Of a DNA stretch of 64,000 nt, positions 16,356-58,395 are shown piece after piece. Below the pieces are notes generated by a model. It had not been told where the DNA came from. It saw only the letters and a program-made list of their open reading frames with translations, and did not search any database. The stretch spans positions 42,307 to 106,306 of the forward strand of contig CAKSER010000003.1 in assembly GCA_934447715.1 (NCBI GenBank). Direction: 5' to 3'. The position numbers and the translations under genes are program-made. The DNA is from an uncultured Eubacteriales bacterium. GTDB lineage: Bacteria > Bacillota > Clostridia > Oscillospirales > CAG-272. How positions within the stretch are numbered: position 1 is the first letter of the stretch; each line of letters starts with the position of its first letter.

Positions 16356-19300
16356 TTACATCCGTATATCCGACCGGCTGCCCTGCCAATCGGTAACCGC
16401 TACGTCGCCTCTCGGGTCGAGGTCAAAGCTGTCGCACCGAAGGATGCTGCCGCTGTAGAGCATATAGGGCCGGAACATATAGCCCTCCTTGCTTCCGATA
16501 AGATAGAGCGTTCCTCTTCCTTTTCTTCTTGAGCCGTGGAATTCGCCTATATAGTATTCCGCCCATTCGACCCCGTTTTCAAACCACAGGGATATCATTC
16601 GGCAATCGCCCTCGGGAAGGCAATTCGAAGTGAAATTGTCGCTTGCTATGATGTACGGATTGTCGCTGTTTGCCGTGATGCAGACACCTGTTCCGCACGG
16701 AGCGTCGTTTACAAACTGTCCTACATAGCAGTCGGTAAGCTCGCTTGAATTTATATTAGCAAACCGGATCTCGCCGAATCCGCTTTTTGATATATAGGTG
16801 GTATTCCCGACGCGCCTTTCGCTTACGGATCCGACATAGCGCGCGCCGTTTTCACAGTCTATCACCCTCGGTCCGTTAGGGGAGGGAAGAATGCTGTCGT
16901 TGCTCCAGCGCTGACCGCACCAGCTGCCGTTTTTTTTCGTAAGGAAGATTCCGTGGCTGATACCGTCAACAAACTCGCCGATATTTACCACGCCGTTTGC
17001 ATATTCGTATCTGCCGAAGCCGTTATAGCGGTTGTCCTTCCACCATCCGCGGTAGACATCGCCGTTTTTGTAGGTCTGCTCGCCGTAGCCGCATCTTTTG
17101 TCGTCCTTCCAGAGCCCTTTGTAGATTACTCCGTTTCCGGCATCAAGAACACCGTAGCCCTCGTAGCCGTTTTGGTGAAAGCCGCCGGTGTACTGCTCTC
17201 CGGTGGCAAAATGATACACTCCGTGCCCCTCCCGCAAGCCGTCGACCACCGATCCTCTGTAGTAATCGCCGTTTTCGTACTCGATCAGCGTTTCGCTTTC
17301 GTCCGTATCCTCGTCGTCATCATGGGTGTTATCATCATCGTAACCGCCGTCATCGTCTGCTTGATACATTTTTGCATTCGAGCCGGGCAGATAGCCTTTA
17401 TCAAGCAGATCTTCAAGCTGACCGTCATAGTAGCCGAAGCAGCTGTCGTAGTTGCCGTCGCAGTCCGGGATAAGCGGATCGTTGAGATTGCCGCTTTCCT
17501 GCAGGCGGAGCATTGCGCATAGGAATACGCAGTCGTCATCGCCGTATTCGCAGGATACCGTGAACAGGTCGAACAGCGGATCAAAATAGTCCGGGTCGCC
17601 TGTATCCTTGAAAAGGAAGTATGCAAAATTTGCAAGATAAGGAGCAAGCTTCACATTTTCGGTATAGGCAGCGGCGCGCATCGCCTTAAGGATGTATTCC
17701 TTGTCGGTAAAGCCGTGAAGAAAGTCGAGCTGGTCGATCCATTCGGCAAGCTCGTCTTGATCGATGCCGAGAATGCCGGAAATCAGCTCTCTGGATTCCT
17801 CATAGTCGGATTCCGCAAGCGCCTCGCGCAGCTCGTCTGCAAACGGACGTAAATATAGGCTCGAATTGCCGATATAGCGGTCGCGCGGATCTAAAAACAG
17901 CTCCGGGCTGACAAGCTTTTTCTGAAGCTCGCTTATAGAGGAAAACTCCTCCCATTCGTCTGATGCCCGGTCGGAATTCGAATCTCTCGTATCGGAAAGA
18001 CCAACGCTCTGTGACCCGGATCGACCGCTCGCATAACCTCCTGACATATTGCTCGGCATGCTGCCGTAATAGCTGTCCTTTGCGCGCCGCCCGTCCTCGA
18101 CAGTCTTTATGCTCTCGTCATACGGAATGCAGGTTTCAATCGCTCTGCCGTCCTCGTAAAAATCGATGTAGCTCTTGCCGATCTCTCCGTCGCGGTGAAG
18201 GAAATGCCACACAAAGAGCCCGCATTTTCTGCCGTTTACCCACTCGCCCTCATATACCTTATCCATGCCGGCGACACTTCCGTTACCCTCGCGGCAAATG
18301 CCGTGTCCGTGCTCCCTGTTGTCAAGCCACTCGCCGTCATAGCTGTATTTTATAAATATCTCGCCGGCATTAAGAGCATCCGGACCGGCTTTGCCGTACA
18401 TGACCATCCTGCCCACACCGCATCTTTTGTCGTCCTTCCACTCGCCGTCGTAGACATCTCCGTCCGCCCAAATGTAAACTCCGTTGCCGTACCTGCTTCC
18501 GCTCTGCCACTGCCCTTCGTATCTGTCGCCGTCCTTATAGATCCGCTTGCCGTAGCCGTCGTATTTGCCGTTCTTAAAGCCGCCCTCATATACCGAGCCG
18601 TCGGCAAAGCAGTACTTTCCTTCGACCATCATGCCGTCAAGCCACTCGCCGTCAAAGGACGCTCCGTTTGACCAGCTGATTCTTCCCCTGCCGCATCTCT
18701 TGCCGTCCTTCCACATTCCGTCATAGACGTCGCCGTTTGCCCAGGTGTATTTTCCGCGGCCGTTCTTTTTTCCGTTAATGAACCAGCCCTCGAACAGGTC
18801 GCCGTCAATTTCAATCCGCTTGAATTCTCCCTGCGGCTCGGATTTGTCGGACGTCGATTTGTCGGACGCAGAAGAAAAACCGGTACCGGAAGCCGCGCCT
18901 GCTCCCAACGTGCCGGATAAAGCAATCGAGGCGGCGGTGCTGCTTATCGCGCCGCTCTGCCTGCTGTCTGCCCCCGATGAGCCTGCCGCTTTGTCTTTGG
19001 AAGCACCGATGCCGTCCGAAGCCCCATTTACCGAAGTCTCACTTGACGAGGCGCCGCTTGCCGTATTGCCGCCGTCCGAAGTGCCGCCTGCCGAAAGAAT
19101 GTCCTTCAGAGCCTTTCTTACAAGCGCACCGGATTCATCCGATGAGCGCAGGGGCTGTACCGCTTCAAGCGCCTTTGCGTGATCCTTTTTGCAGCCGAAA
19201 AAGCCGTACTCATACGCAAGCGCAAGATATGCAATGCAGTCGGGATCGGTCGGATCGCTTTCGTGAGCTGCGCTGAAGGTGCGGAAGGCAAGCGATGTGA

Positions 19301-28918: not shown

Positions 28919-29794
28919 TCAGTTTGTGAAGATGTTTACGGCAACATATTCATCGTTGTATTTGACAACAGCGATTGCGGTGTGCCCGAAGATGCTGTTG
29001 ATCATATTCCTGTGATGACCGGGAGAACCTATCCATCCGTTAACAGCTGTTTCCGCAAAATTACCATATATAATTAAATTTCTGCCAATATTTTCTGCCA
29101 TCGCAGTATAAAAAGTGTCAAATGCTGTATCCGGAGTGGAACCGTCCGGACGAGTATGAGAGTAATTTGTTGTTGCTTCCTGTGCCCTGATTTTCGTGCC
29201 GTAATACAGCTCCTCGTCCCAAACAAGCGGAGCAACCCCGTTTCTTGCTCTTTCTTCGTTGATCAGCTTGAAGATTTCCATCTCGATATCATAATAGTCG
29301 TGAGTAGCAGTGTGGACCTGCCTGACCTTCGGAATAACCGAGCCGTATGAGAGCAGTATGCCGCAGCCTTTGCAGTAGGTGTCGCCGGTGTACCCCTCGG
29401 AAGAAGTTGTTGCGTCCTTTTTGTTCCGGATTTCGGTGTCCGAGTGGTCGCATACCTTTTCCGGAGGCGCTGTCTCCTGCTTTTTTGAGGTAGCAGGCGG
29501 CGCAGTTACCGGGGGATTGGTCGCCGGTGGATTTGTAGTCGGAGGATTGGTCACCGGAGGATTGGTCGCCGTAGCGCTTGTAACAGGCGCATCGGTTATA
29601 GCGGCGGTCGACTGTTCGCTTTCTGTCTTATTGATTTCCTCAGAGCCTTTTTCCGTCTCGGCTGATTCTGTGCCGAGAGCCGTGCTTGATTCGGTGTCTT
29701 CTGCCGTGTCCTCGGCAGTATCATCCTTTTTGCTGCATGAGGCAAGAGGCAGCAGTAAAAGCAGGGCGAGAATGCATGCTGTAAGTTTTTTCAT
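28919..29794 (-). CDS. lipoprotein with a Thr/Pro linker, a Cys-rich EGYTGD motif and a C-terminal CAP/SCP (YkwD-like) domain (paralog 1)
   Basis: 291 aa. Lipobox LPLASC, TNPP repeats, CDHSDTEIRNKKDATTSSEGYTGDTYCKGCG. CAP-like end: NGWIGSPGHHRNMINSIFGHTAIAV. Confidence 0.75.
   Translation of the reverse strand: MKKLTACILALLLLLPLASCSKKDDTAEDTAEDTESSTALGTESAETEKGSEEINKTESEQSTAAITDAPVTSATATNPPVTNPPTTNPPATNPPVTAPPATSKKQETAPPEKVCDHSDTEIRNKKDATTSSEGYTGDTYCKGCGILLSYGSVIPKVRQVHTATHDYYDIEMEIFKLINEERARNGVAPLVWDEELYYGTKIRAQEATTNYSHTRPDGSTPDTAFDTFYTAMAENIGRNLIIYGNFAETAVNGWIGSPGHHRNMINSIFGHTAIAVVKYNDEYVAVNIFTN
29360..29794 (-). repeat. 435-nt near-identical 5' segment shared with paralog 2
   Basis: Read side by side with 30332-30766, roughly nine of ten positions match. 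The CAP-domain 3' parts of the two genes are far more diverged. Confidence 0.85.
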
Positions 29795-29863: not shown

Positions 29864-30766
29864 TTATCCGACAAAAATGCATGCGGCGTGGTAGGTTTTT
29901 TCTGCAAAAAAGATCGCAACCGCCATCTGGGAGTATTCGCTGTCAAGCATGTTTGCTTTATGGGCAGGCGAGTCCAGCCATCCGTCAACAAAGCCGTCTA
30001 TATTGGAGTTTCCCCCACAATTTTCTCCCCATACGTCGAAGCTTCCGAAATCGTAATCGGAGGTTTCTGTTACAGCCGTATAAAAATCGTCGCCGTTTTT
30101 CCTTTTGTGCGGCCCTGCACCGATTCCGAGGTCGATAAACTCGTAATGCTCCTTTGCTCTGATTTTACAGCCGGCATAAAGCGCTTCATTCCATCTGAGC
30201 GGCGCGACACCGGCTTTTGCTCTTTCTGCGTTGATTTCGTTAAAAATCTTCATTTCGGCATCCTTATAATCGTGGCTTACCGAAACGGTTTGCTTAATCT
30301 TAGGAATGCTCGAACCACTCGAAATCAGCTTGCCGCAGCCTTTGCAATAGGTATCGCCGGTGTACCCCTCGGCAGAAGCCGTTGCGTCCTTCTTGTTTCG
30401 GATTTCGGTGTCCGAGTGGTCGCATATCTTTTCCGGAGGTGCTGTCTCCTGCTTTTTTGAGGTGGCAGGCGGCACAGTTGCCGGGGGCTCGGTCGCTGGT
30501 GGATTTGTTGTCGGAGGGTTGGTCACCGGAGGATTTGTCGTAGAAGCGCTTGTTGCGGGCGCATCGGTCAAAGCGGCGGTCGACTGCTCATCTTCCGTTT
30601 CGCTGATTTCCTCAGAGCCTTTTGCCGTCTCGGCTGATTCTGTGCCGAGAGCCGTGCTTGATTCGGTGTCTTTTGCCGTATCCACGGCAGAATCATCCTT
30701 TTTGCTGCATGAGGCAAGAGGCAGCAGTAAAAGCAGGGCGAGAATGCATGCGGTAAGTTTTTTCAT
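29864..30766 (-). CDS. lipoprotein with a CAP/SCP (YkwD-like) domain (paralog 2)
   Basis: Start moved to ATG 30766 (MKKLTACILALLLLLPLASC). The first ~145 codons are nearly identical to paralog 1. CAP-like end: DGWLDSPAHKANMLDSEYSQMAVAI. Confidence 0.75.
   Translation of the reverse strand: MKKLTACILALLLLLPLASCSKKDDSAVDTAKDTESSTALGTESAETAKGSEEISETEDEQSTAALTDAPATSASTTNPPVTNPPTTNPPATEPPATVPPATSKKQETAPPEKICDHSDTEIRNKKDATASAEGYTGDTYCKGCGKLISSGSSIPKIKQTVSVSHDYKDAEMKIFNEINAERAKAGVAPLRWNEALYAGCKIRAKEHYEFIDLGIGAGPHKRKNGDDFYTAVTETSDYDFGSFDVWGENCGGNSNIDGFVDGWLDSPAHKANMLDSEYSQMAVAIFFAEKTYHAACIFVG
30332..30766 (-). repeat. 435-nt near-identical 5' segment shared with paralog 1
   Basis: Partner of 29360-29794. 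Confidence 0.85.
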
Positions 30767-30779
30767 AACCGTTTTCCTT

Positions 30780-31889
30780 TCACCTGCCGTACTTGCCGAT
30801 AAAGACATTATCGGCAATATAGTCTACAGGGCCGGTTTTCTTGACCGCTATTGCAGTATGTGTGTACTTCGGCCACAGGATGTTTTCCCTGTGCCCCGGA
30901 GATTCCATCCAGTTTTTAACCAATCTTTCTGCAACCTCGGTTGCGTCGTCATATCCTGCGGACGCTGCAAGATTTTCACCCCAGGTAGTAAAATCCGCCG
31001 TGGTATAATTGGAATTTTCAATGATCGCGGAAATAAATGTGTCTCCGTTCGGCCTTGTGTGTCCCCATTTTTCGTCTGCTTCGTTTACTCTCACCTTGGT
31101 GCCGGGATACAGCTCCTCGTCCCAGATGAGGGCGGCAAGCCCCTCCTTTGCCCTTTCTTCGTTTATAAGGCGGAGTACCTCTGTCTCGATCTCCTTGTAA
31201 TCGTGTGTTGCGGTATATATCTTCCTTTTCGGAATGACCTCTCCCTTGTCGAACACCTGCTTGCATCTTTGGCAGATCCAGTCGCCGGTGTAGCCCTCGC
31301 TTTCTGTTGTCGCAGCCTTTTCCCCGACCTTCTGAATGTCGTGACCGAGGTTCTTGCCGTATGTTCCGTTGCTGATTGTGACATGGCAGATAGCGCAGCA
31401 CACATCGCCGGAGTAGCTTTCGTGCTCGCAGTCTGCTTCTCTTTTATTAATTATGTATGTTTTTTCATGCTTGCAGCTGCCGTATTCCGGCGGCTGTGCG
31501 TCGTTTGATGTTGTTTTTTCCGGAGCCTTTGTCTCGGGCGCTTTTGTCTGCGGAGCATTGGTTTGCGTTGCCTTGGTTGTCTTTACGTCCTCATTCTGCG
31601 TTGTCTGCTCTGTTTTCGGTTGAGTATCGGTGCTTTCGGGAGCATCCGTATAATCGGATTCGGACTCCTTGTCGGATTCCGCATCCGTTACAGGCGCGGT
31701 GTCCTCCGGCATTGCCGAGCTGTCCGAGGCAGAATCAAGGCGGTCCCCCGGCAGCTCCTCCTGCTTTTTGCAGGAGAAAAGAAGAAGCGAAAAGAGCATT
31801 AAGATCGACAAAGCCCCTGCTGCGGCATTCATGTAAAACGGGCGGCTTGCCCTTGTCGGTTCTCTTAATGACGGCTTGATATGTTTCAT
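30780..31889 (-). CDS. lipoprotein with a duplicated Cys-rich motif and a CAP/SCP (YkwD-like) domain (paralog 3)
   Basis: 369 aa. Lipobox LLFSC. CKHEKTYIINKREADCEHESYSGDVCCAICH plus ATTESEGYTGDWICQRCK. CAP-like end: KNWMESPGHRENILWPKYTHTAIAV. Confidence 0.7.
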   Translation of the reverse strand: MKHIKPSLREPTRASRPFYMNAAAGALSILMLFSLLLFSCKKQEELPGDRLDSASDSSAMPEDTAPVTDAESDKESESDYTDAPESTDTQPKTEQTTQNEDVKTTKATQTNAPQTKAPETKAPEKTTSNDAQPPEYGSCKHEKTYIINKREADCEHESYSGDVCCAICHVTISNGTYGKNLGHDIQKVGEKAATTESEGYTGDWICQRCKQVFDKGEVIPKRKIYTATHDYKEIETEVLRLINEERAKEGLAALIWDEELYPGTKVRVNEADEKWGHTRPNGDTFISAIIENSNYTTADFTTWGENLAASAGYDDATEVAERLVKNWMESPGHRENILWPKYTHTAIAVKKTGPVDYIADNVFIGKYGR

Positions 31890-32012: not shown

Positions 32013-32041
32013 TTGACAAACCAAAAGCAATCTGATATAAT
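32013..32041 (+). promoter_or_regulatory. sigma-A type promoter for rplJ-rplL
   Basis: Perfect TTGACA-17 nt-TATAAT. Confidence 0.65.
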
Positions 32042-32047
32042 CGCAAG

Positions 32048-32239
32048 GTAAACCAAAGACAGCAGGTTTAATTTAAAGTAAAAGCAAGCGAAAGCAAGCT
32101 ATCCTGCCGAGGCAAGCATCAATGATCCGGAAGGTCGGGAAACGGCTTTTGGATTTATAATATTGAAGTTTTGTGCCTGCGGCTGTCTATATGACCTGCA
32201 GGTTTTTTGATTGATTTTGTTATGGAGGTGAAAATCAAA
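32048..32239 (+). promoter_or_regulatory. probable ribosomal protein L10 leader (autoregulatory 5' UTR of rplJ-rplL) with an attenuator-like hairpin
   Basis: A ~190-nt structured leader lies between a consensus promoter and rplJ. It ends with CCTGCGG...CTGCAGG followed by TTTTTT just before the SD. This position matches the known Firmicute L10 leader, but I did not verify the covariance model. Confidence 0.5.
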
Positions 32240-32797
32240 ATGGCAAGCGCAAAGATTCTTGAACAGAAGAAGGCTCAGACAGCAGCTCTTACAGAACAGA
32301 TCAAGAAGGCTCAGGCAGGTGTCATCGTTAACTACGCCGGCATCACGGTTGAGCAGGATACAGCAATGAGAGCAGCGCTCCGCAAGGCAGGTGTTGACTA
32401 CAAGGTCTACAAGAACACAATGTCCGAGCGCGCATTTGCAGAGGCCGGATATGAAGAGCTTAAGCAGCATCTTGTCGGAATGACCGCAATCGCAACAAGC
32501 GAGACAGATCCGGTAGCTCCGGCTAAGATTCTTAAAGAGTATGCAGAGAAGATCGAGACATTCGAGCTTAAGGGCGGATTCGTTGACGGAGAGGTTCTGG
32601 ACAAGGCAGGTGTTGTAGCACTTTCCGAGATTCCGAGCAAGGAAACACTTATCTGCAAGATCATGCTCGGCATGCAATCTCCGCTTTACAAGCTGGCATA
32701 TGCTCTTCAGGCTATCATCGACAAGGGCGAGCAGTCTGCAGAAGCTCCCGCAGCAGAAGCAGAGGCGCCGGCAGCAGAAGCACCGGCGGCAGAATAA
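32240..32797 (+). CDS. rplJ: 50S ribosomal protein L10
   Basis: Start at ATG 32240 (MASAKILEQKKAQ...) with a GGAGGTG SD. Lies upstream of rplL. Has an Ala/Glu/Pro-rich C-terminal tail. Confidence 0.95.
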   Translation: MASAKILEQKKAQTAALTEQIKKAQAGVIVNYAGITVEQDTAMRAALRKAGVDYKVYKNTMSERAFAEAGYEELKQHLVGMTAIATSETDPVAPAKILKEYAEKIETFELKGGFVDGEVLDKAGVVALSEIPSKETLICKIMLGMQSPLYKLAYALQAIIDKGEQSAEAPAAEAEAPAAEAPAAE

Positions 32798-32990: not shown

Positions 32991-33368
32991 ATGGCTAGCG
33001 AAAAGACTACACAGATTCTTGAAGAAATCAAAGGTCTGACCATTCTTGAGATGGCTGATCTCGTAAAGGCACTTGAAGAGGAATTCGGCGTAACAGCTGC
33101 ACCGGTTGCAGTTGCAGGCGCAGCAGGAGCAGCTCCGGCTGCAGCAGCAGAGGAGAAGACAGAGTTCGACGTAATTCTCGCTTCCTTCGGCGCAAACAAG
33201 CTCGCAGTTATCAAGGCTGTCCGTGAGGCTACAGGTCTCGGACTTAAGGAAGCTAAGGAGCTCGTTGAGGGCGCACCGAAGCCTGTTAAGACCGCTGTAT
33301 CCAAGGAAGAGGCTGAGGCTCTTAAGAAGGCTCTTGAGGAGTCCGGCGCTTCTGTTGAGATTAAGTAA
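32991..33368 (+). CDS. rplL: 50S ribosomal protein L7/L12
   Basis: 125 aa. An Ala-rich hinge and C-terminal [22 protein letters not shown]. Confidence 0.97.
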
Positions 33369-33637: not shown

Positions 33638-34528
33638 ATGGATAACCCGACAAAAAGAATCTGCCCGAATTGCGGCGCCGAGGTCGAGGGAAGCGCATTA
33701 TTCTGCACCACCTGCGGAAGAAAACTGCCTGACGGAGAAGCTCCGAAAAATATAAGCTACGGCATAAAAGCGGAAAACGAGCCGGCAAGCTCGGCAAATG
33801 ATGCAGAAAACAAATCGGAGTCTGCAGGAAAGTCCGAAAATGAATCCGCAAACGAGCAAAGAAACGAACAGCCACCGGTAAATGAAGCTCATGACGGTGA
33901 ACAGGAAAGAGCCGAGTATACGGCTTATGTGGGCAAAACGAGTGGGGCAAACGAAACAGGCAGAAACGGGGAATATTACGGCGCATACGGCTTTGAAGCA
34001 GATCGGGATGCCGGTGCAAAATATGAAGCAGGCACAAGCATGCCGGCAGAACCGAAAGCAGATCCTAAAAAGGACGAAAACAGCGCCCCGATCAGCACCT
34101 TCGGCTTCTTCGGAATCCTTCTTCTCTGCGCAATACCGGTTGTCGGACCGATTCTGGTAATTATCTGGGCATGCGGAGGCTGCCGCAAGAAGCAGAAGAC
34201 GACCTTTGCGCGCGGTGCACTTCTCAAATTCGCCGTCGATATCATTATCTTTTTGATCACAGCCGGAATTCTTTTTGCCGCATTTGCCGGTCATATTAAA
34301 AAAATCGTGTCAAACGGCGGCTTTGATGAATACATCGATGACTACTTCGAGGAGTTTTTTGACCGGTTCGAGGAATTTAAAAATCAGTACGAGGAATCAA
34401 AAAAGGACGACCGGAAAAATGATATCCGAAAGGATAATGACCGAAAGGACGAAAACGGTTCTAAAGAAACCGCCGGTTCAGCCATCACCGAAAGCGCCGA
34501 GGCCCCCGAAACCGGGCGTCCGCAATAA
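33638..34528 (+). CDS. zinc-ribbon domain membrane protein, function unknown
   Basis: 296 aa. N-terminal CPNCGAEVEGSALFCTTCG, a polar linker, two TM segments and a charged tail. Confidence 0.6.
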   Translation: MDNPTKRICPNCGAEVEGSALFCTTCGRKLPDGEAPKNISYGIKAENEPASSANDAENKSESAGKSENESANEQRNEQPPVNEAHDGEQERAEYTAYVGKTSGANETGRNGEYYGAYGFEADRDAGAKYEAGTSMPAEPKADPKKDENSAPISTFGFFGILLLCAIPVVGPILVIIWACGGCRKKQKTTFARGALLKFAVDIIIFLITAGILFAAFAGHIKKIVSNGGFDEYIDDYFEEFFDRFEEFKNQYEESKKDDRKNDIRKDNDRKDENGSKETAGSAITESAEAPETGRPQ

Positions 34529-34603
34529 GCTTTGCCCGATTTTTAACAATTATCAGCAATTCGGCTTATCTTAAAAAGCTAAGCCCATCCTTATAAAATT
34601 ATC

Positions 34604-34637
34604 AAAACGCCGCAAAAAAGCGGCGTTTTGAATTTTT
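34604..34637 (+). terminator. intrinsic terminator after the 33638 gene
   Basis: AAAACGCCGC-aaaaaa-GCGGCGTTTT followed by GAATTTTT. Confidence 0.75.
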
Positions 34638-34723
34638 GACGGCGTAAATCATTCAAAAATTCCTCTTCTGCCTGTATTTATGTGATTTTATATGCCGATT
34701 GCAAAAATTAATTGTGAAAAAAG

Positions 34724-34752
34724 TTGCAATGAGGATGTTTTTTTGATATAAT
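34724..34752 (+). promoter_or_regulatory. sigma-A type promoter firing into the tandem-repeat array
   Basis: TTGCAA-17 nt-TATAAT. The first repeat unit begins 17 nt after the -10 element. Confidence 0.6.
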
Positions 34753-34768
34753 TCACATAAGTATAAAA

Positions 34769-35215
34769 ACGCGGTATTAAAATTTTCTAAAACCAAAAGT
34801 CAGTTTTCCGCGTTCTATAAGTTTAATGCTTCGCATTAAACTCAGAGTATGTTCTGTGCTGATTTATAGTACAGCAAGCGCGGTATTTAATTTATCCATA
34901 ATTTAAAGTACAGTCTTCCGCATTCTATAAGTTTAACGCAAAGCGTTAAACTTAAATGAAATTATGTACTAATTTACAGCGCGGCAGACGCGGTATTAAA
35001 TTTTTCTAGAACCAAAAGTCAGTCTTCCGCGTTCTATAAGTTTAATGCTTCGCATTAAACTCGGGTGATGTTCTGTGCTGATTTATAGTACAGCAAATGC
35101 AGATATAAATTGCACCTGATTGTCTTATATAAGTCAAGCTGCAATCCTCTGTATTAAACTCGGATAAAGTTTTGTGCCGAGCCGAAATTCGGCAGACGCG
35201 GCATACATTCTGCCG
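34769..35215 (+). repeat. array of tandem ~110-nt structured repeats (units A, B and C intact, D decayed, plus a stub)
   Basis: Unit starts at 34769, 34878, 34988, 35097 and 35206. Each intact unit has a perfect 9-bp hairpin at 34821-34841, 34931-34951 and 35040-35060. See findings. Confidence 0.9.
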
Positions 35216-35295
35216 CACCATACTTTAAATATGCTTTTACCTGATTTTAAATCAAATATATAAAAAGACCATGCAGGAATGCTACGGAGAGGGAT

Positions 35296-36234
35296 ATGGA
35301 ACTTAAAAGAAAACGCAGGCTCGGGGACAGGGCGGACGGCTACAGACTTCGCGGAGTTGATCCGTACGACGCGATAATCCCGTATATAATGTCCAAAAGA
35401 AACGACTCGCAGAATCTGTTCTGCGACCGTTTTGAGGTTACCAATGTCGAAAAATATGTAAAGGAAAAGCGCGAGCAGGGATATTCCAATTTCGGAATCA
35501 TGCATGTAATCCTTGCGGCATACGTCCGCACGGTTTCGCAAAGACCGAAGCTGAACAGATTCATCGCCGGGCAGAAGATGTATGCAAGAAACGGAATCGA
35601 GGTCTGCATGGCGGTAAAGAGAGAGCTCAGATCCGACGAGACAAACACGGTTATAAAGGTGCATTTCGAGCCGACCGACACCGCAGTTCAGGTTTATGAA
35701 AAGTTCGGCAAAACCTTTGACGAGGCAACCGCTCCGAAGGAAAACACCTTTGACGGAACCGCAAGAATTTTAAACTATATCCCCGGTCTTCTTAAAAAGT
35801 TTGCCGTCGGCTTCCTTGCATTTCTCGATTACTTCGGGCTTCTTCCGAGATTCCTTTCAAGGGTGAGCTGCTTCCACGGCTCAATGTTTATCACATCGAT
35901 GGGCTCGCTCGGAATTCCGCCGATCTATCATCACCTTTACAACTTCGGCAACATTCCGCTTTTCATCGCGTTCGGAAGAAAGAGGCGCGCAGTTGAGCTT
36001 GACGAAGAGGGAAAGCCGGTAAAGCGTGCATATGTCGATTATAATATCGTAACAGACGAAAGAATCTGCGACGGCTTTGCATATGCCTCAGCACTGAAGC
36101 TTTTCAGAAGATACTTAAACAATCCCTGGGTGCTTGACAATCCGCCGGAACAGGTAATCGAGGATCCGAATATCGACAGAAAAAAAGAGAAAAAGGCAAA
36201 GAAGAAAGAAAATACCGAAAATACAGATAAGTAA
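35296..36234 (+). CDS. 2-oxoacid dehydrogenase E2 / CAT-fold acyltransferase-like protein, no lipoyl domain, non-canonical active site
   Basis: 312 aa. C-terminal YVDYNIVTDERICDGFAYASALKLFRRYLNNP aligns to the E2 catalytic DHRxxDG segment, but His is replaced by Glu. GGAGAGGG SD present. Confidence 0.6.
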   Translation: MELKRKRRLGDRADGYRLRGVDPYDAIIPYIMSKRNDSQNLFCDRFEVTNVEKYVKEKREQGYSNFGIMHVILAAYVRTVSQRPKLNRFIAGQKMYARNGIEVCMAVKRELRSDETNTVIKVHFEPTDTAVQVYEKFGKTFDEATAPKENTFDGTARILNYIPGLLKKFAVGFLAFLDYFGLLPRFLSRVSCFHGSMFITSMGSLGIPPIYHHLYNFGNIPLFIAFGRKRRAVELDEEGKPVKRAYVDYNIVTDERICDGFAYASALKLFRRYLNNPWVLDNPPEQVIEDPNIDRKKEKKAKKKENTENTDK

Positions 36235-36288: not shown

Positions 36289-37263
36289 ATGTCTGATAAA
36301 ACAAAGGGAATAATAGCGGCGACGGCGGCAGGGGCTGCTGTTGCAACCGCGGCGCTGACCGTGCCTCCGGTGATCATGCAGAGGGTTGCCTGCGCACGCG
36401 GCAGGGAATTCAAGCTGTCCGACGCCTTTAAAAGCAAGGATAGAAAATCAAAGCGCAGCATGCTCGAGGTAAAGCGTAAGGTAAGAGAGATAAAGCAGAG
36501 AGAGTATGAATCGGTCGAAATCGAATCGTATGACGGACTGAAGCTTAAAGGAAAATACTTTGCAAATCCTCAAAAGGCAAAAAGGCTGATTATCTGCTTT
36601 CACGGCTACCGTTCGAGCGATTATCACGATTTTTCCTATTCGTTTGATTACTGGTTTGAAAGAGGCTTTGATATTCTGCTCGTCACCCAGCGCGCGCACG
36701 GCGAAAGCGAGGGAAAATACATAACCTTCGGCATAAAGGAGCGATTTGACTGCAAGAGCTGGGTGGAATATGCCGTAAAGCGCTTCAAAAAGAATGTCGA
36801 GATCCTGCTTGAAGGAGTCTCGATGGGCGCGACAACCGTCCTTATGGCAAGCTCGCTTAAGCTTCCCAAAAACGTAAAGGCGATTGTTGCCGATTGCGGA
36901 TTTATATCTCCCTTTGAGATACTTAAGCATGTAATGAAGAAGTCATATAAGCTGTCGGCATTTCCGTATCTGTATCTTACAAGTGCGGCAAGCGGTCTTC
37001 TTGCCGGCTTCGGCTTTAAGGATGCATCAACCGTCGATGCGGTAAAGAGAACCGATATACCGATATTCTTTGCGCACGGCTCCTCCGACGGCTTTGTGCC
37101 GTGCAGGATGTCGATTGATGCATTCGACGCCTGTGCATCCGACAAGAAGCTGTTTATTGCAGGCGGAGCGGATCATGCATTAAGCTATGTTGTTCAAAAG
37201 AGCGACTATGAACGTACTCTCGGAGAGTTTTTGTCAAAATACATTAAGAATTTCAAAATATGA
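36289..37263 (+). CDS. alpha/beta hydrolase with an N-terminal membrane anchor
   Basis: 324 aa. Nucleophile elbow GVSMGA, a HGSSDGFVP segment and C-terminal GGADHAL. Confidence 0.8.
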   Translation: MSDKTKGIIAATAAGAAVATAALTVPPVIMQRVACARGREFKLSDAFKSKDRKSKRSMLEVKRKVREIKQREYESVEIESYDGLKLKGKYFANPQKAKRLIICFHGYRSSDYHDFSYSFDYWFERGFDILLVTQRAHGESEGKYITFGIKERFDCKSWVEYAVKRFKKNVEILLEGVSMGATTVLMASSLKLPKNVKAIVADCGFISPFEILKHVMKKSYKLSAFPYLYLTSAASGLLAGFGFKDASTVDAVKRTDIPIFFAHGSSDGFVPCRMSIDAFDACASDKKLFIAGGADHALSYVVQKSDYERTLGEFLSKYIKNFKI

Positions 37264-37853
37264 AATGTTTAACAGAGCCGGAGCTGCTTTTTGAAATTTC
37301 GCAGCTTGTAAAGCAAAACCCGACTGCAATCATCTCGGTCGACGGAAGATGCGGCTCCGGAAAGACGACGCTTTCAAAAAAAATGAAGGAAGTAATCGGC
37401 GCGCAGCTCGTTCACGCAGACGACTTCTTTCTTACTCCGTTTATGCGTACGAAGGAAAGGCTTGATACGCCGGGAGAAAATATCGATCACGAGCGCCTCG
37501 AAAAAGAGGTGCTTTTGCCGTTCTCGGATGCTGTGGGATCAAATGAGCATAAAGAAATCAGCTTCCTTCCGTATGTCTGCTCGCTTAAGGACTTCGGGAA
37601 GGCAAAGCAGCTGAGAACCGACGCGCCTCTTATCGTAGAGGGCAGCTACAGCCAGCATCTGTCGCTTTTAAAATATTATGATCTTAAGATATTTGTCGAC
37701 TGCAGCAGCGAAATTCAGCTCGAACGGCTGAAAAAAAGAGAGGGAGAAGAAAAGCTCCATAATTTCGTCGAACGGTGGATACCGCTCGAGGAAAAATATT
37801 TTAAGTACTGCAAAATAAAGGAAAACGCGGATATACTGATCGTCACAGGCTGA
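37260..37853 (+). CDS. P-loop NTPase, uridine kinase-like family
   Basis: 197 aa. Walker A GRCGSGKTTLSKKM. ATGA start/stop overlap with the hydrolase gene. Confidence 0.6.
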   Translation: MKCLTEPELLFEISQLVKQNPTAIISVDGRCGSGKTTLSKKMKEVIGAQLVHADDFFLTPFMRTKERLDTPGENIDHERLEKEVLLPFSDAVGSNEHKEISFLPYVCSLKDFGKAKQLRTDAPLIVEGSYSQHLSLLKYYDLKIFVDCSSEIQLERLKKREGEEKLHNFVERWIPLEEKYFKYCKIKENADILIVTG

Positions 37854-58135: not shown

Positions 58136-58395
58136 TTTATTCTTTCCGTTTCGCACAACTGTTTTCCATATTTTGTAATATTATACCATTATTTGTGTTT
58201 TCTGTCAAGAACATGTCGAAAAATGAATGCTTTAGTCCTCCCAAAATATCGACAAAAAACGGCATAAAACGTGCTCAAAAAATTCTTATTTTGATATAAT
58301 TAGACAAAATATACAAACAAAGAACAAAAAGGAACTAATTTGAAGAAACAAAACTGAAATAAATTGTATAAACCTCCGATTTTGCCCCTTTTCGG

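Follow-up and report, generated by a model that had tools for sequence, protein, structure and literature searches.

A strain-variable tandem array of structured ~110-nt units in the predicted leader of an acyltransferase-like gene of an uncultured Oscillospirales bacterium

We analysed a 64,000-nt stretch of contig CAKSER010000003.1 from an uncultured Oscillospirales bacterium (assembly GCA_934447715.1). This whole stretch is called the window, and coordinates are window positions unless another locus is named. Between the gene for a zinc-ribbon membrane protein and the gene for an acyltransferase-like protein, the window carries a head-to-tail array of direct repeats of 109-110 nt, comprising three intact units (A, B and C) and a decayed one (D), immediately preceded by a promoter-like site. 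Each intact unit can form three hairpin helices, here called P1, P2 and P3. The features of the locus are as follows.

33638-34528, + strand: gene for the zinc-ribbon membrane protein, upstream neighbour of the leader region.
34602..34641, + strand: intrinsic terminator of the zinc-ribbon gene (hairpin 34602-34631 plus T-run), left limit of the leader region.
34724-34752, + strand: sigma-70-type promoter TTGCAA-17-TATAAT with extended -10 TG (TGaTATAAT), motif score 10/12.
34769..34877, + strand: unit A, with P1 at 34769-34774/34808-34813, P2 at 34820-34829/34833-34842 and P3 at 34854-34860/34868-34874.
34878..34987, + strand: unit B, which diverges from A and C (72-74 % identity).
34988..35096, + strand: unit C, 94 % identical to A, with its P2 core at 35040-35060.
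35097..35205, + strand: unit D, the decayed copy, weakly related, P1 and P2 lost.
35206..35295, + strand: leader tail, with the stub ACGCGGCAT, the hairpin GCGGCA-TACATTC-TGCCGC and the Shine-Dalgarno (SD) sequence GGAGAGGG.
35286-35293, + strand: the SD sequence GGAGAGGG, as read from the sequence.
35296..36234, + strand: first downstream gene, encoding a 312-aa acyltransferase-like protein (PF00198, E=1.6e-7, residues 224-279).

The terminator of the zinc-ribbon gene has a 12-bp stem with seven G-C pairs, followed by the T-run. Beyond it opens a 767-nt gap that is among the longest stretches of the window free of open reading frames (ORFs); an earlier note on this DNA had called it the longest non-coding stretch, a rank that is unproven. 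The same note had described a near-consensus promoter running straight into the repeats, and this site indeed scores highest of the promoter-like sites within 34300-35600 (10/12), with a predicted transcription start near 34759-34761. It is the sole canonical promoter, 543 nt upstream of the gene, with no gene-proximal alternative. On the + strand from 34641 to 35296 there is no terminator-like site inside the array or before the ATG at 35296, which bears out the claim that the units lack terminators. The last intact module ends 200 nt before the ribosome-binding site (RBS). The array has a G+C content of 35 %, as against 48 % for the window, and the rest of the intergenic region is alike in this respect; the 552-nt leader as a whole folds with a z-score of -4.4.

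Tandem structure is evident by several measures. TRF reports an array at 34767-35097 with a period of 109, 3.0 copies and a score of 420, and a repeat search places the copy starts at 34769, 34879 and 34988. Global alignment gives identities of 102/109 between A and C (94 %), 81/110 between B and C (74 %) and 79/110 between A and B (72 %), close to the roughly 70 % that had been estimated by eye for B, and the pairwise similarities of the three units stand 12-25 z units above shuffled controls. The units adjoin without spacers, and A and C have their variable parts in common. Unit D is rightly regarded as a decayed copy: its relation to the intact units is weak (z 2.4-3.7), it retains only TATAAGT and ATTAAACTCGG.T.A.GTT.TGTGC, and the covariance model built from the intact units (R1), against which unit A scores 131.5 bits, fails to detect it. 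The 3' end of D, GGCAGACGCGG, resembles the B-to-C junction. A duplicated dimer, (A,B)(C,D), may be considered on this basis, with a 3' junction of D that is B-like, a centre that is C-like and an overall similarity that is weak. The 26-codon ORF noticed in unit A is real, and no ORF inside the array is conserved between strains. We also set aside a CRISPR array, as there are no spacers and no cas gene among the upstream gene and the four downstream genes scanned.

The three-helix layout proposed for each intact unit was recovered in full. P1 joins ACGCGG and CCGCGT in 6 bp around an A/U-rich loop of ~34 nt. P2 is, as the earlier note had said, a perfect hairpin, but its stem measures 10 bp with a UUC loop in A and C, and 12 bp with an AAA loop in B, rather than the 9 bp given there; in unit B it reads AAGTTTAACGC-AAA-GCGTTAAACTT (34929-34953). 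P3 joins CUGUGCU and AGUACAG in 7 bp that include a G.U pair. Between P1 and P2 runs a linker, which in unit A is TTCTATAAG at 34813-34821. Compared with dinucleotide shuffles, single units fold better, with z from -2.8 to -3.8. P2 pairs perfectly in A, B and C alike, and the adjoining copy D is without both P1 and P2.

Differences between units are unevenly placed. Units B and C differ at 29 of 110 positions, and these differences avoid the 3' arm of P1, the linker and the P2 stems: only 2 of 20 fall in the P2 stem, both compensating, and 1 of 12 in the P1 3' arm plus linker. They are concentrated in the interior of P1, in the P2 loop (3/3) and in the 3' third of the unit (14/35). Compensated changes occur at two base pairs, namely a U-A pair of P2 that is C-G in B, and a C-G pair of P1 (in A and C) that is U-A in unit B of two other strains (L084 and L093, introduced below). 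The G.U pairs of P3, together with a U-A to U.G change in L084, would be tolerated in + strand RNA only. The earlier note had concluded that pairing, and not sequence, is what is kept. The compensated change it cited is present, but within the window the conclusion rests on one event, which is not significant alone; each compensated pair is a single event and weak as formal evidence of structure.

To place the array in context, we collected 80 genome loci with orthologues of the downstream gene, taken from metagenome-assembled genomes (MAGs) of Oscillospirales and other Clostridia, the best with 72 % protein identity. The intergenic regions upstream of these orthologues are mostly 100-300 nt, by a rough estimate. 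At three loci of other species (L001, L085 and L089) a TGnTATAAT promoter lies 30-60 nt before the orthologue's ATG, and there is no array. Because the orthologues' promoters lie near the ATG and our locus has no proximal alternative, the distal promoter at 34724-34752 is most simply interpreted as the downstream gene's own. The simplest reading would then be that ~480 nt, comprising units A-D and the tail, were inserted or amplified between promoter and RBS in this lineage. An array inserted behind the gene's own promoter is, on that account, likely transcribed on the + strand. The earlier note placed the array in the downstream operon's leader, under that operon's own promoter, and this view is therefore probably right, the orthologues' promoters being of the same type. 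The downstream protein family itself is conserved in Oscillospirales without the array, and occurs without repeats in more than 80 species.

Searches for relatives of the array were negative throughout. The assertion that the units match no known RNA family agrees with scans against Rfam 15, which gave no credible match: at gathering thresholds the sole match in the whole window is a ribosomal L10 leader (32035-32217), and a permissive scan of 34500-35400 returned sub-threshold matches only, mostly on the upstream terminator. Those within the array are to plant microRNA (miRNA) models, at 15-25 bits vs thresholds of 80-144. The 64-kb window contains no further unit, no further P2 palindrome at up to 3 mismatches and no further R1 match, and ~14 kb beyond the window ends contain no further copy (~78 kb of genome in total). 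Upstream of the gene, the 80 orthologue loci show no BLASTN similarity, R1 match or TRF tandem array; R1 was also run over nine further strain and relative loci (89 in total, ~0.9 Mb). A strict core pattern gave 0 matches in IMG/VR and 0 in the JGI metagenomes, and distant-mode BLASTN found no match to the unit in phage and plasmid collections. Three matches to a relaxed pattern lie inside A/T-rich coding DNA, have no hairpin or repeat, and were rejected as chance. A promoter-like string at 58286-58318, considered as a possible second array, heads an unrelated gene for a small secreted protein. Dispersed or inverted copies were found neither in the ~78 kb of genome nor in the collections searched. 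In the protein database the identities of the downstream protein step from 98 % to 77 %, so there is no intermediate relative, and the relatives at 77 % and 74 % are non-syntenic, with short intergenic regions.

Six independent assemblies of the species were available, from which three strain lineages were compared. Five assemblies besides the window, from independent samples, carry the array, which is therefore not an assembly artefact. The allele A-B-C-D is found in the window, in ERR7745429 (loci L081/L094), in a Hadza sample (L082) and in ERZ27287139 (L083), and the allele B-C-D in SRR29134269 (L084) and SRR29133847 (L093). The B-C-D allele has a novel junction of TATAAA with TGCGGTATTT, identical in L084 and L093. 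Copy number is consequently polymorphic, 3.5 vs 2.5 units, with unit A absent from the shorter allele. On either side of the array, a 91-nt promoter block is nearly identical across the three lineages (one substitution in L084, none in L093) and the final 51 nt of the leader tail show no differences among strains. The contigs of three short-read assemblies (L081, L082 and L094) end inside units A or C. It is likely that the locus is fragmented or collapsed in many MAGs, and copy-number calls from short reads need care.

As a yardstick of neutral change we used four-fold sites in the flanking genes, of which 26 of 451 differ between lineages (5.8 %). The 94 % identity of A and C is about that expected of neutral divergence between lineages, and for this reason unit A appears to have been gained or lost recently, or to have been C's partner in a recent conversion. 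The other intact copies behave differently from the DNA that adjoins them. Unit B shows 0 substitutions in 108 positions between strain lineages, and the 5' 75 nt of unit C are likewise invariant, with 4-5 substitutions in the 3' 34 nt of C. Taken together, unit B and the 5' part of C have 0/183 substitutions in both other lineages, for which the probability at 5.8 % is 2e-5. Between the window and L084, by comparison, unit D differs at 11/109 sites (~10 %), the 3' end of C, unit D and the tail together at 21/233, and the spacer upstream of the promoter at 22/146; 0/183 vs 21/233 gives a Fisher p=4e-6. We interpret the invariance of B and 5' C, set against the divergence of D, as suggesting constraint on the intact modules. 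Since B and C differ at 26 %, their duplication is several-fold older than the strain split. A small example of structure-preserving change is found next to the array, in the terminator hairpin at 34602-34631: compared with L084 (1558-1587) its loop is AAAAAA instead of TTTTCT and one stem C is T there, giving a G.U pair, and the hairpin is kept.

Looking across these results, the reading that we favour, tentatively and with somewhat less than even confidence, is that the array is a lineage-specific, copy-number-variable structured leader element, whose transcribed and constrained modules act in cis as RNA. A start near 34759, with no terminator encountered downstream, would make the array part of a leader of ~540 nt. 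During transcription, modules A, B and C would each fold independently into P1, linker, P2 and P3, leaving an invariant single-stranded UUCUAUA linker between P1 and P2. The modules could then offer repeated docking sites to a putative trans-acting factor specific for the invariant UUCUAUAAG-P2 core, and/or stabilise the transcript as a structured 5' element. In either role they might set the stability or the translation of the operon mRNA, and the effect would be graded by the number of intact modules, two or three.

A number of observations weigh against such an element. Both the transcription of the array and its strand are things that we infer, and the reverse complement of the units folds equally well (z -3.2 to -4.3), as near-palindromes would be expected to. 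Unit B of the window has a C.A mismatch that weakens P1. Covariation in the array is not statistically significant: there are two compensated pairs among six distinct unit sequences, and 215 of 500 column shuffles match this. Template switching within a palindrome, moreover, can yield paired compensated changes without selection. No candidate gene for a binding protein lies nearby. In the sequences searched, the array appears confined to one species and so has no long-term conservation. Unit A, being absent from the B-C-D allele, is dispensable, and a difference in copy number is minisatellite-like behaviour. Finally, stretches of 180-230 nt without any difference are also seen in the coding DNA that flanks the array in these strains, and L093 is a mosaic of window-like and L084-like segments. 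Recent recombination could therefore explain part of the B/C invariance.

The main rival explanation builds on several of the same facts. It holds that slippage or unequal recombination multiplied a part of the leader rich in hairpins into a neutral minisatellite, or variable-number tandem repeat (VNTR), which is a passenger of the transcript or just of the DNA and whose modules are functionless, and that the similarity of the units reflects concerted evolution, recombination and youth. The A-B-C-D and B-C-D alleles, the restriction to one species, the non-significant covariation, the mosaic recombination in L093 and the identical ~200-nt runs found elsewhere between the same strains are all in keeping with this, as is the ongoing decay of unit D; the A-C identity, near neutral strain divergence, fits recent gain or loss, or gene conversion. 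Counter to this, B and C are 26 % diverged from each other and yet show 0/183 changes between lineages, where adjoining non-coding DNA differs by ~9-10 %. Furthermore, P2 is perfect in three intact units with its sole stem changes compensated, and inter-unit differences avoid the linker-P2 core. We regard a purely neutral origin as the strongest of the alternatives, though on balance rather unlikely.

In mycobacteria, the minisatellites known as mycobacterial interspersed repetitive units (MIRUs) form a dispersed family at dozens of loci. Our array resembles bacterial VNTRs and MIRUs in having head-to-tail, non-coding units of tens to ~100 nt that lie by or within operons, and it resembles VNTRs in a copy number that varies between strains and in repeats that break short-read contigs. 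As a head-to-tail non-coding repeat with strain-variable copy number, it has the defining features of an intergenic VNTR. It is unlike MIRUs in occupying one locus in the DNA searched, in being strongly structured, in having strain-invariant intact units, and in including a unit that is 26 % diverged.

A bolder form of the favoured reading is that the array represents a new kind of cis-acting leader RNA, with the UUCUAUAAG-P2 core of the three-hairpin unit recognised by a putative protein or ligand and two or three tandem copies setting the expression of a conserved operon that ends in comEC, or else a precursor of several ~110-nt small RNAs (sRNAs). This we consider unlikely, and we would give no better a chance to the 110-nt array being a functional RNA module that is truly new; a new cis-regulatory RNA is here a proposal and not an established finding. 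The earlier note had put the array forward as a candidate new cis-regulatory RNA or sRNA array. To speak of an RNA family would be premature, as no homologous array was found in any other species searched, which also limits any test of covariation. Nor is a riboswitch supported, the modules being three plain hairpins without an expression platform, with no aptamer family match, no significant covariation and no terminator. Tandem riboswitches and other leader motifs in Rfam share with the array the repetition of structured modules in a 5' leader. They differ from it in that the array consists of plain consecutive hairpins with no multi-helix junction and no aptamer match, and has no terminator or obvious SD-sequestering platform, although SD sequestration was not analysed in detail.

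Alternatively, the array might be processed into, or terminate as, ~110-nt trans-acting sRNAs, with the operon expressed by read-through. A strong promoter that runs directly into repeated, independently folding modules would suit this, as would a copy number that can vary without destroying the locus. However, no terminator follows any unit or the array as a whole, and with no second canonical promoter for the gene, it must be reached by the same transcript. Neither target complementarity nor a processing signal was identified in the array, and there is no Rfam match. The Csr/Rsm RNAs are free sRNAs with terminators, are widely conserved and present GGA in hairpin loops. The array is like the CsrB/RsmZ sponges in its repeated hairpin modules and in the possibility of several binding sites on one RNA, and unlike them in its loops (UUC, AAA, GAUUUAU and CUAAUU), in the lack of any GGA in units A-C, in being a leader and in its restriction to a single species. 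A precursor of trans-acting sRNAs is very unlikely in our estimation.

It is also conceivable that the palindromes act at the level of DNA, GTTTAAYGC-N3-GCRTTAAAC being the operator at which a dimeric repressor would loop the DNA or obstruct RNA polymerase. Three perfect palindromes of 21-25 bp stand at regular spacing just downstream of the promoter. The spacing of 109-110 bp corresponds to ~10.5 helical turns and would place them on the same face of the DNA. The entire core sequence, not its pairing alone, is invariant between strains, and both strands fold equally, as a palindrome would. Arguing against operators, the symmetric change from T-A to C-G in unit B preserves the palindrome but changes each of its half-sites, as suits a hairpin better than a sequence-specific operator. 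Nor do P1 and P3 have the form of palindromic operators, and P3 depends on G.U pairs. No gene for a regulator is present in the neighbourhood, and no further palindrome is present in the 64-kb window at up to 3 mismatches. We give this explanation a small chance, slightly below that of the sRNA precursor.

Slimmer again is the chance that the array is a local cluster of a dispersed repeat of the BOX, repetitive extragenic palindromic (REP) or miniature inverted-repeat transposable element (MITE) kind, inserted in the leader and then duplicated at that site. In Streptococcus pneumoniae, BOX elements are modular (boxA-boxB(n)-boxC), number more than 100 dispersed copies in each genome, and are co-transcribed with adjacent genes, whose expression they may affect. 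The array is comparable to them in its modular build, its hairpins, its intergenic position and the varying number of its tandem subunits, here structured units of ~110 nt that would be co-transcribed with the neighbouring gene, and it is an insertion relative to the orthologous loci. No sequence similarity to BOX was found, however, and no dispersed copies: none in ~78 kb of genome, and none in the 89 related loci, the JGI metagenomes, IMG/VR, phages or plasmids. On direct reading, the array ends (AAGTATAAAA running into ACGCGG... on the left, and ...GACGCGGCAT into ACATTC on the right) show no terminal inverted repeats or target-site duplication.

In toxin-antitoxin systems of type III, repeats that encode an RNA antitoxin precede a Rho-independent terminator and the gene for an endoribonuclease toxin (PMC12283969); the antitoxin units measure 34-50 nt and form pseudoknots (PMC12283969, PMC12373285), and tenpI has non-identical repeats with up to 35 % variation (PMC12283969). 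Such a system, with the repeats as antitoxin array, is effectively refuted here: the order of promoter, tandem repeats and same-strand protein gene is superficially that of ToxI, CptI and TenpI loci, but the units are 109-110 nt long as against the 34-50 nt known (PMC12373285), no terminator separates repeats from gene, and the downstream acyltransferase-fold protein, of a PF00198-like family present in more than 80 species without repeats, matches no ToxN/AbiQ-, CptN- or TenpN-type toxin and no defence model.

The genes around the array give some further context. The 312-aa protein has a weak C-terminal match to the catalytic domain of 2-oxoacid dehydrogenase acyltransferases, and this PF00198 match is confined to its last ~55 residues. 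We aligned seven members of the family (the product of 35296-36234 with P0002, P0009, P0030, P0065, P0103 and P0115). All seven share an invariant DERICDG in place of the DHRxxDG of 2-oxoacid dehydrogenase E2 enzymes, so that the usual catalytic histidine is a glutamate, and upstream of it an invariant HHLYxFGN motif. The family, which has no named function, occurs widely in Oscillospirales. Closely packed on the same strand behind it are genes for an alpha/beta hydrolase, a P-loop kinase and ComEC. The kinase (uridine kinase/PRK-like, 37260-37853) has a weak PADLOC match to VakA (E=1.5e-7), probably a generic kinase similarity, and PADLOC gave no other defence match for the zinc-ribbon, acyltransferase-like, hydrolase and kinase proteins. 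Upstream of the zinc-ribbon gene lie the L10 leader, rplJ and rplL. The leader (RF00557, 32035-32217, 47.6 bits, above the gathering threshold) is directly upstream of rplJ (32207-32797), and rplL is at 32991-33368.

Other repeats in the window are of a different nature. A 300-nt direct repeat (29319-29618 and 30291-30590, 85 % identical, 972 nt apart) falls in two minus-strand genes (28919-29794 and 30780-31889); both encode CAP/SCP-domain proteins and are therefore tandem paralogues. Several families of imperfect 26-46-nt direct repeats at 16961-18736 probably reflect a gene for a repeat-domain protein. Beyond the left end of the window, a locus of the same species (L095, 2798-11421) encodes a TerB_N/TerB_C protein, a BrxC/BrxD-like ATPase, PGA_cap, a metallophosphatase and an AAA_15/AAA_23 ATPase, and looks like a defence-island-type neighbourhood.

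The sequence of the array belongs to no described family, and the kind of object, a strain-variable structured intergenic tandem repeat, is a known one. Four features make an unusual set here: the array occupies a single locus, its 110-nt module has three hairpins, it stands between the promoter of a conserved gene and the RBS, and its intact copies show signs of constraint. Either way, the array opens no long-standing question. If it is neutral, it would provide a VNTR for strain typing in an uncultured gut Oscillospirales species, and would warn those who hunt for motifs that perfect hairpins with a compensated pair can occur in a plain minisatellite. If it is indeed a new leader RNA or sRNA precursor, the module would be one first seen in this species. 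If it is functional, a conserved gene whose leader is short in all relatives would, in one species, have gained a leader of ~500 nt that is repeated and structured. We would then be looking at a very young regulatory RNA caught near its origin, for which the natural two- and three-module alleles would constitute a ready-made dosage series.

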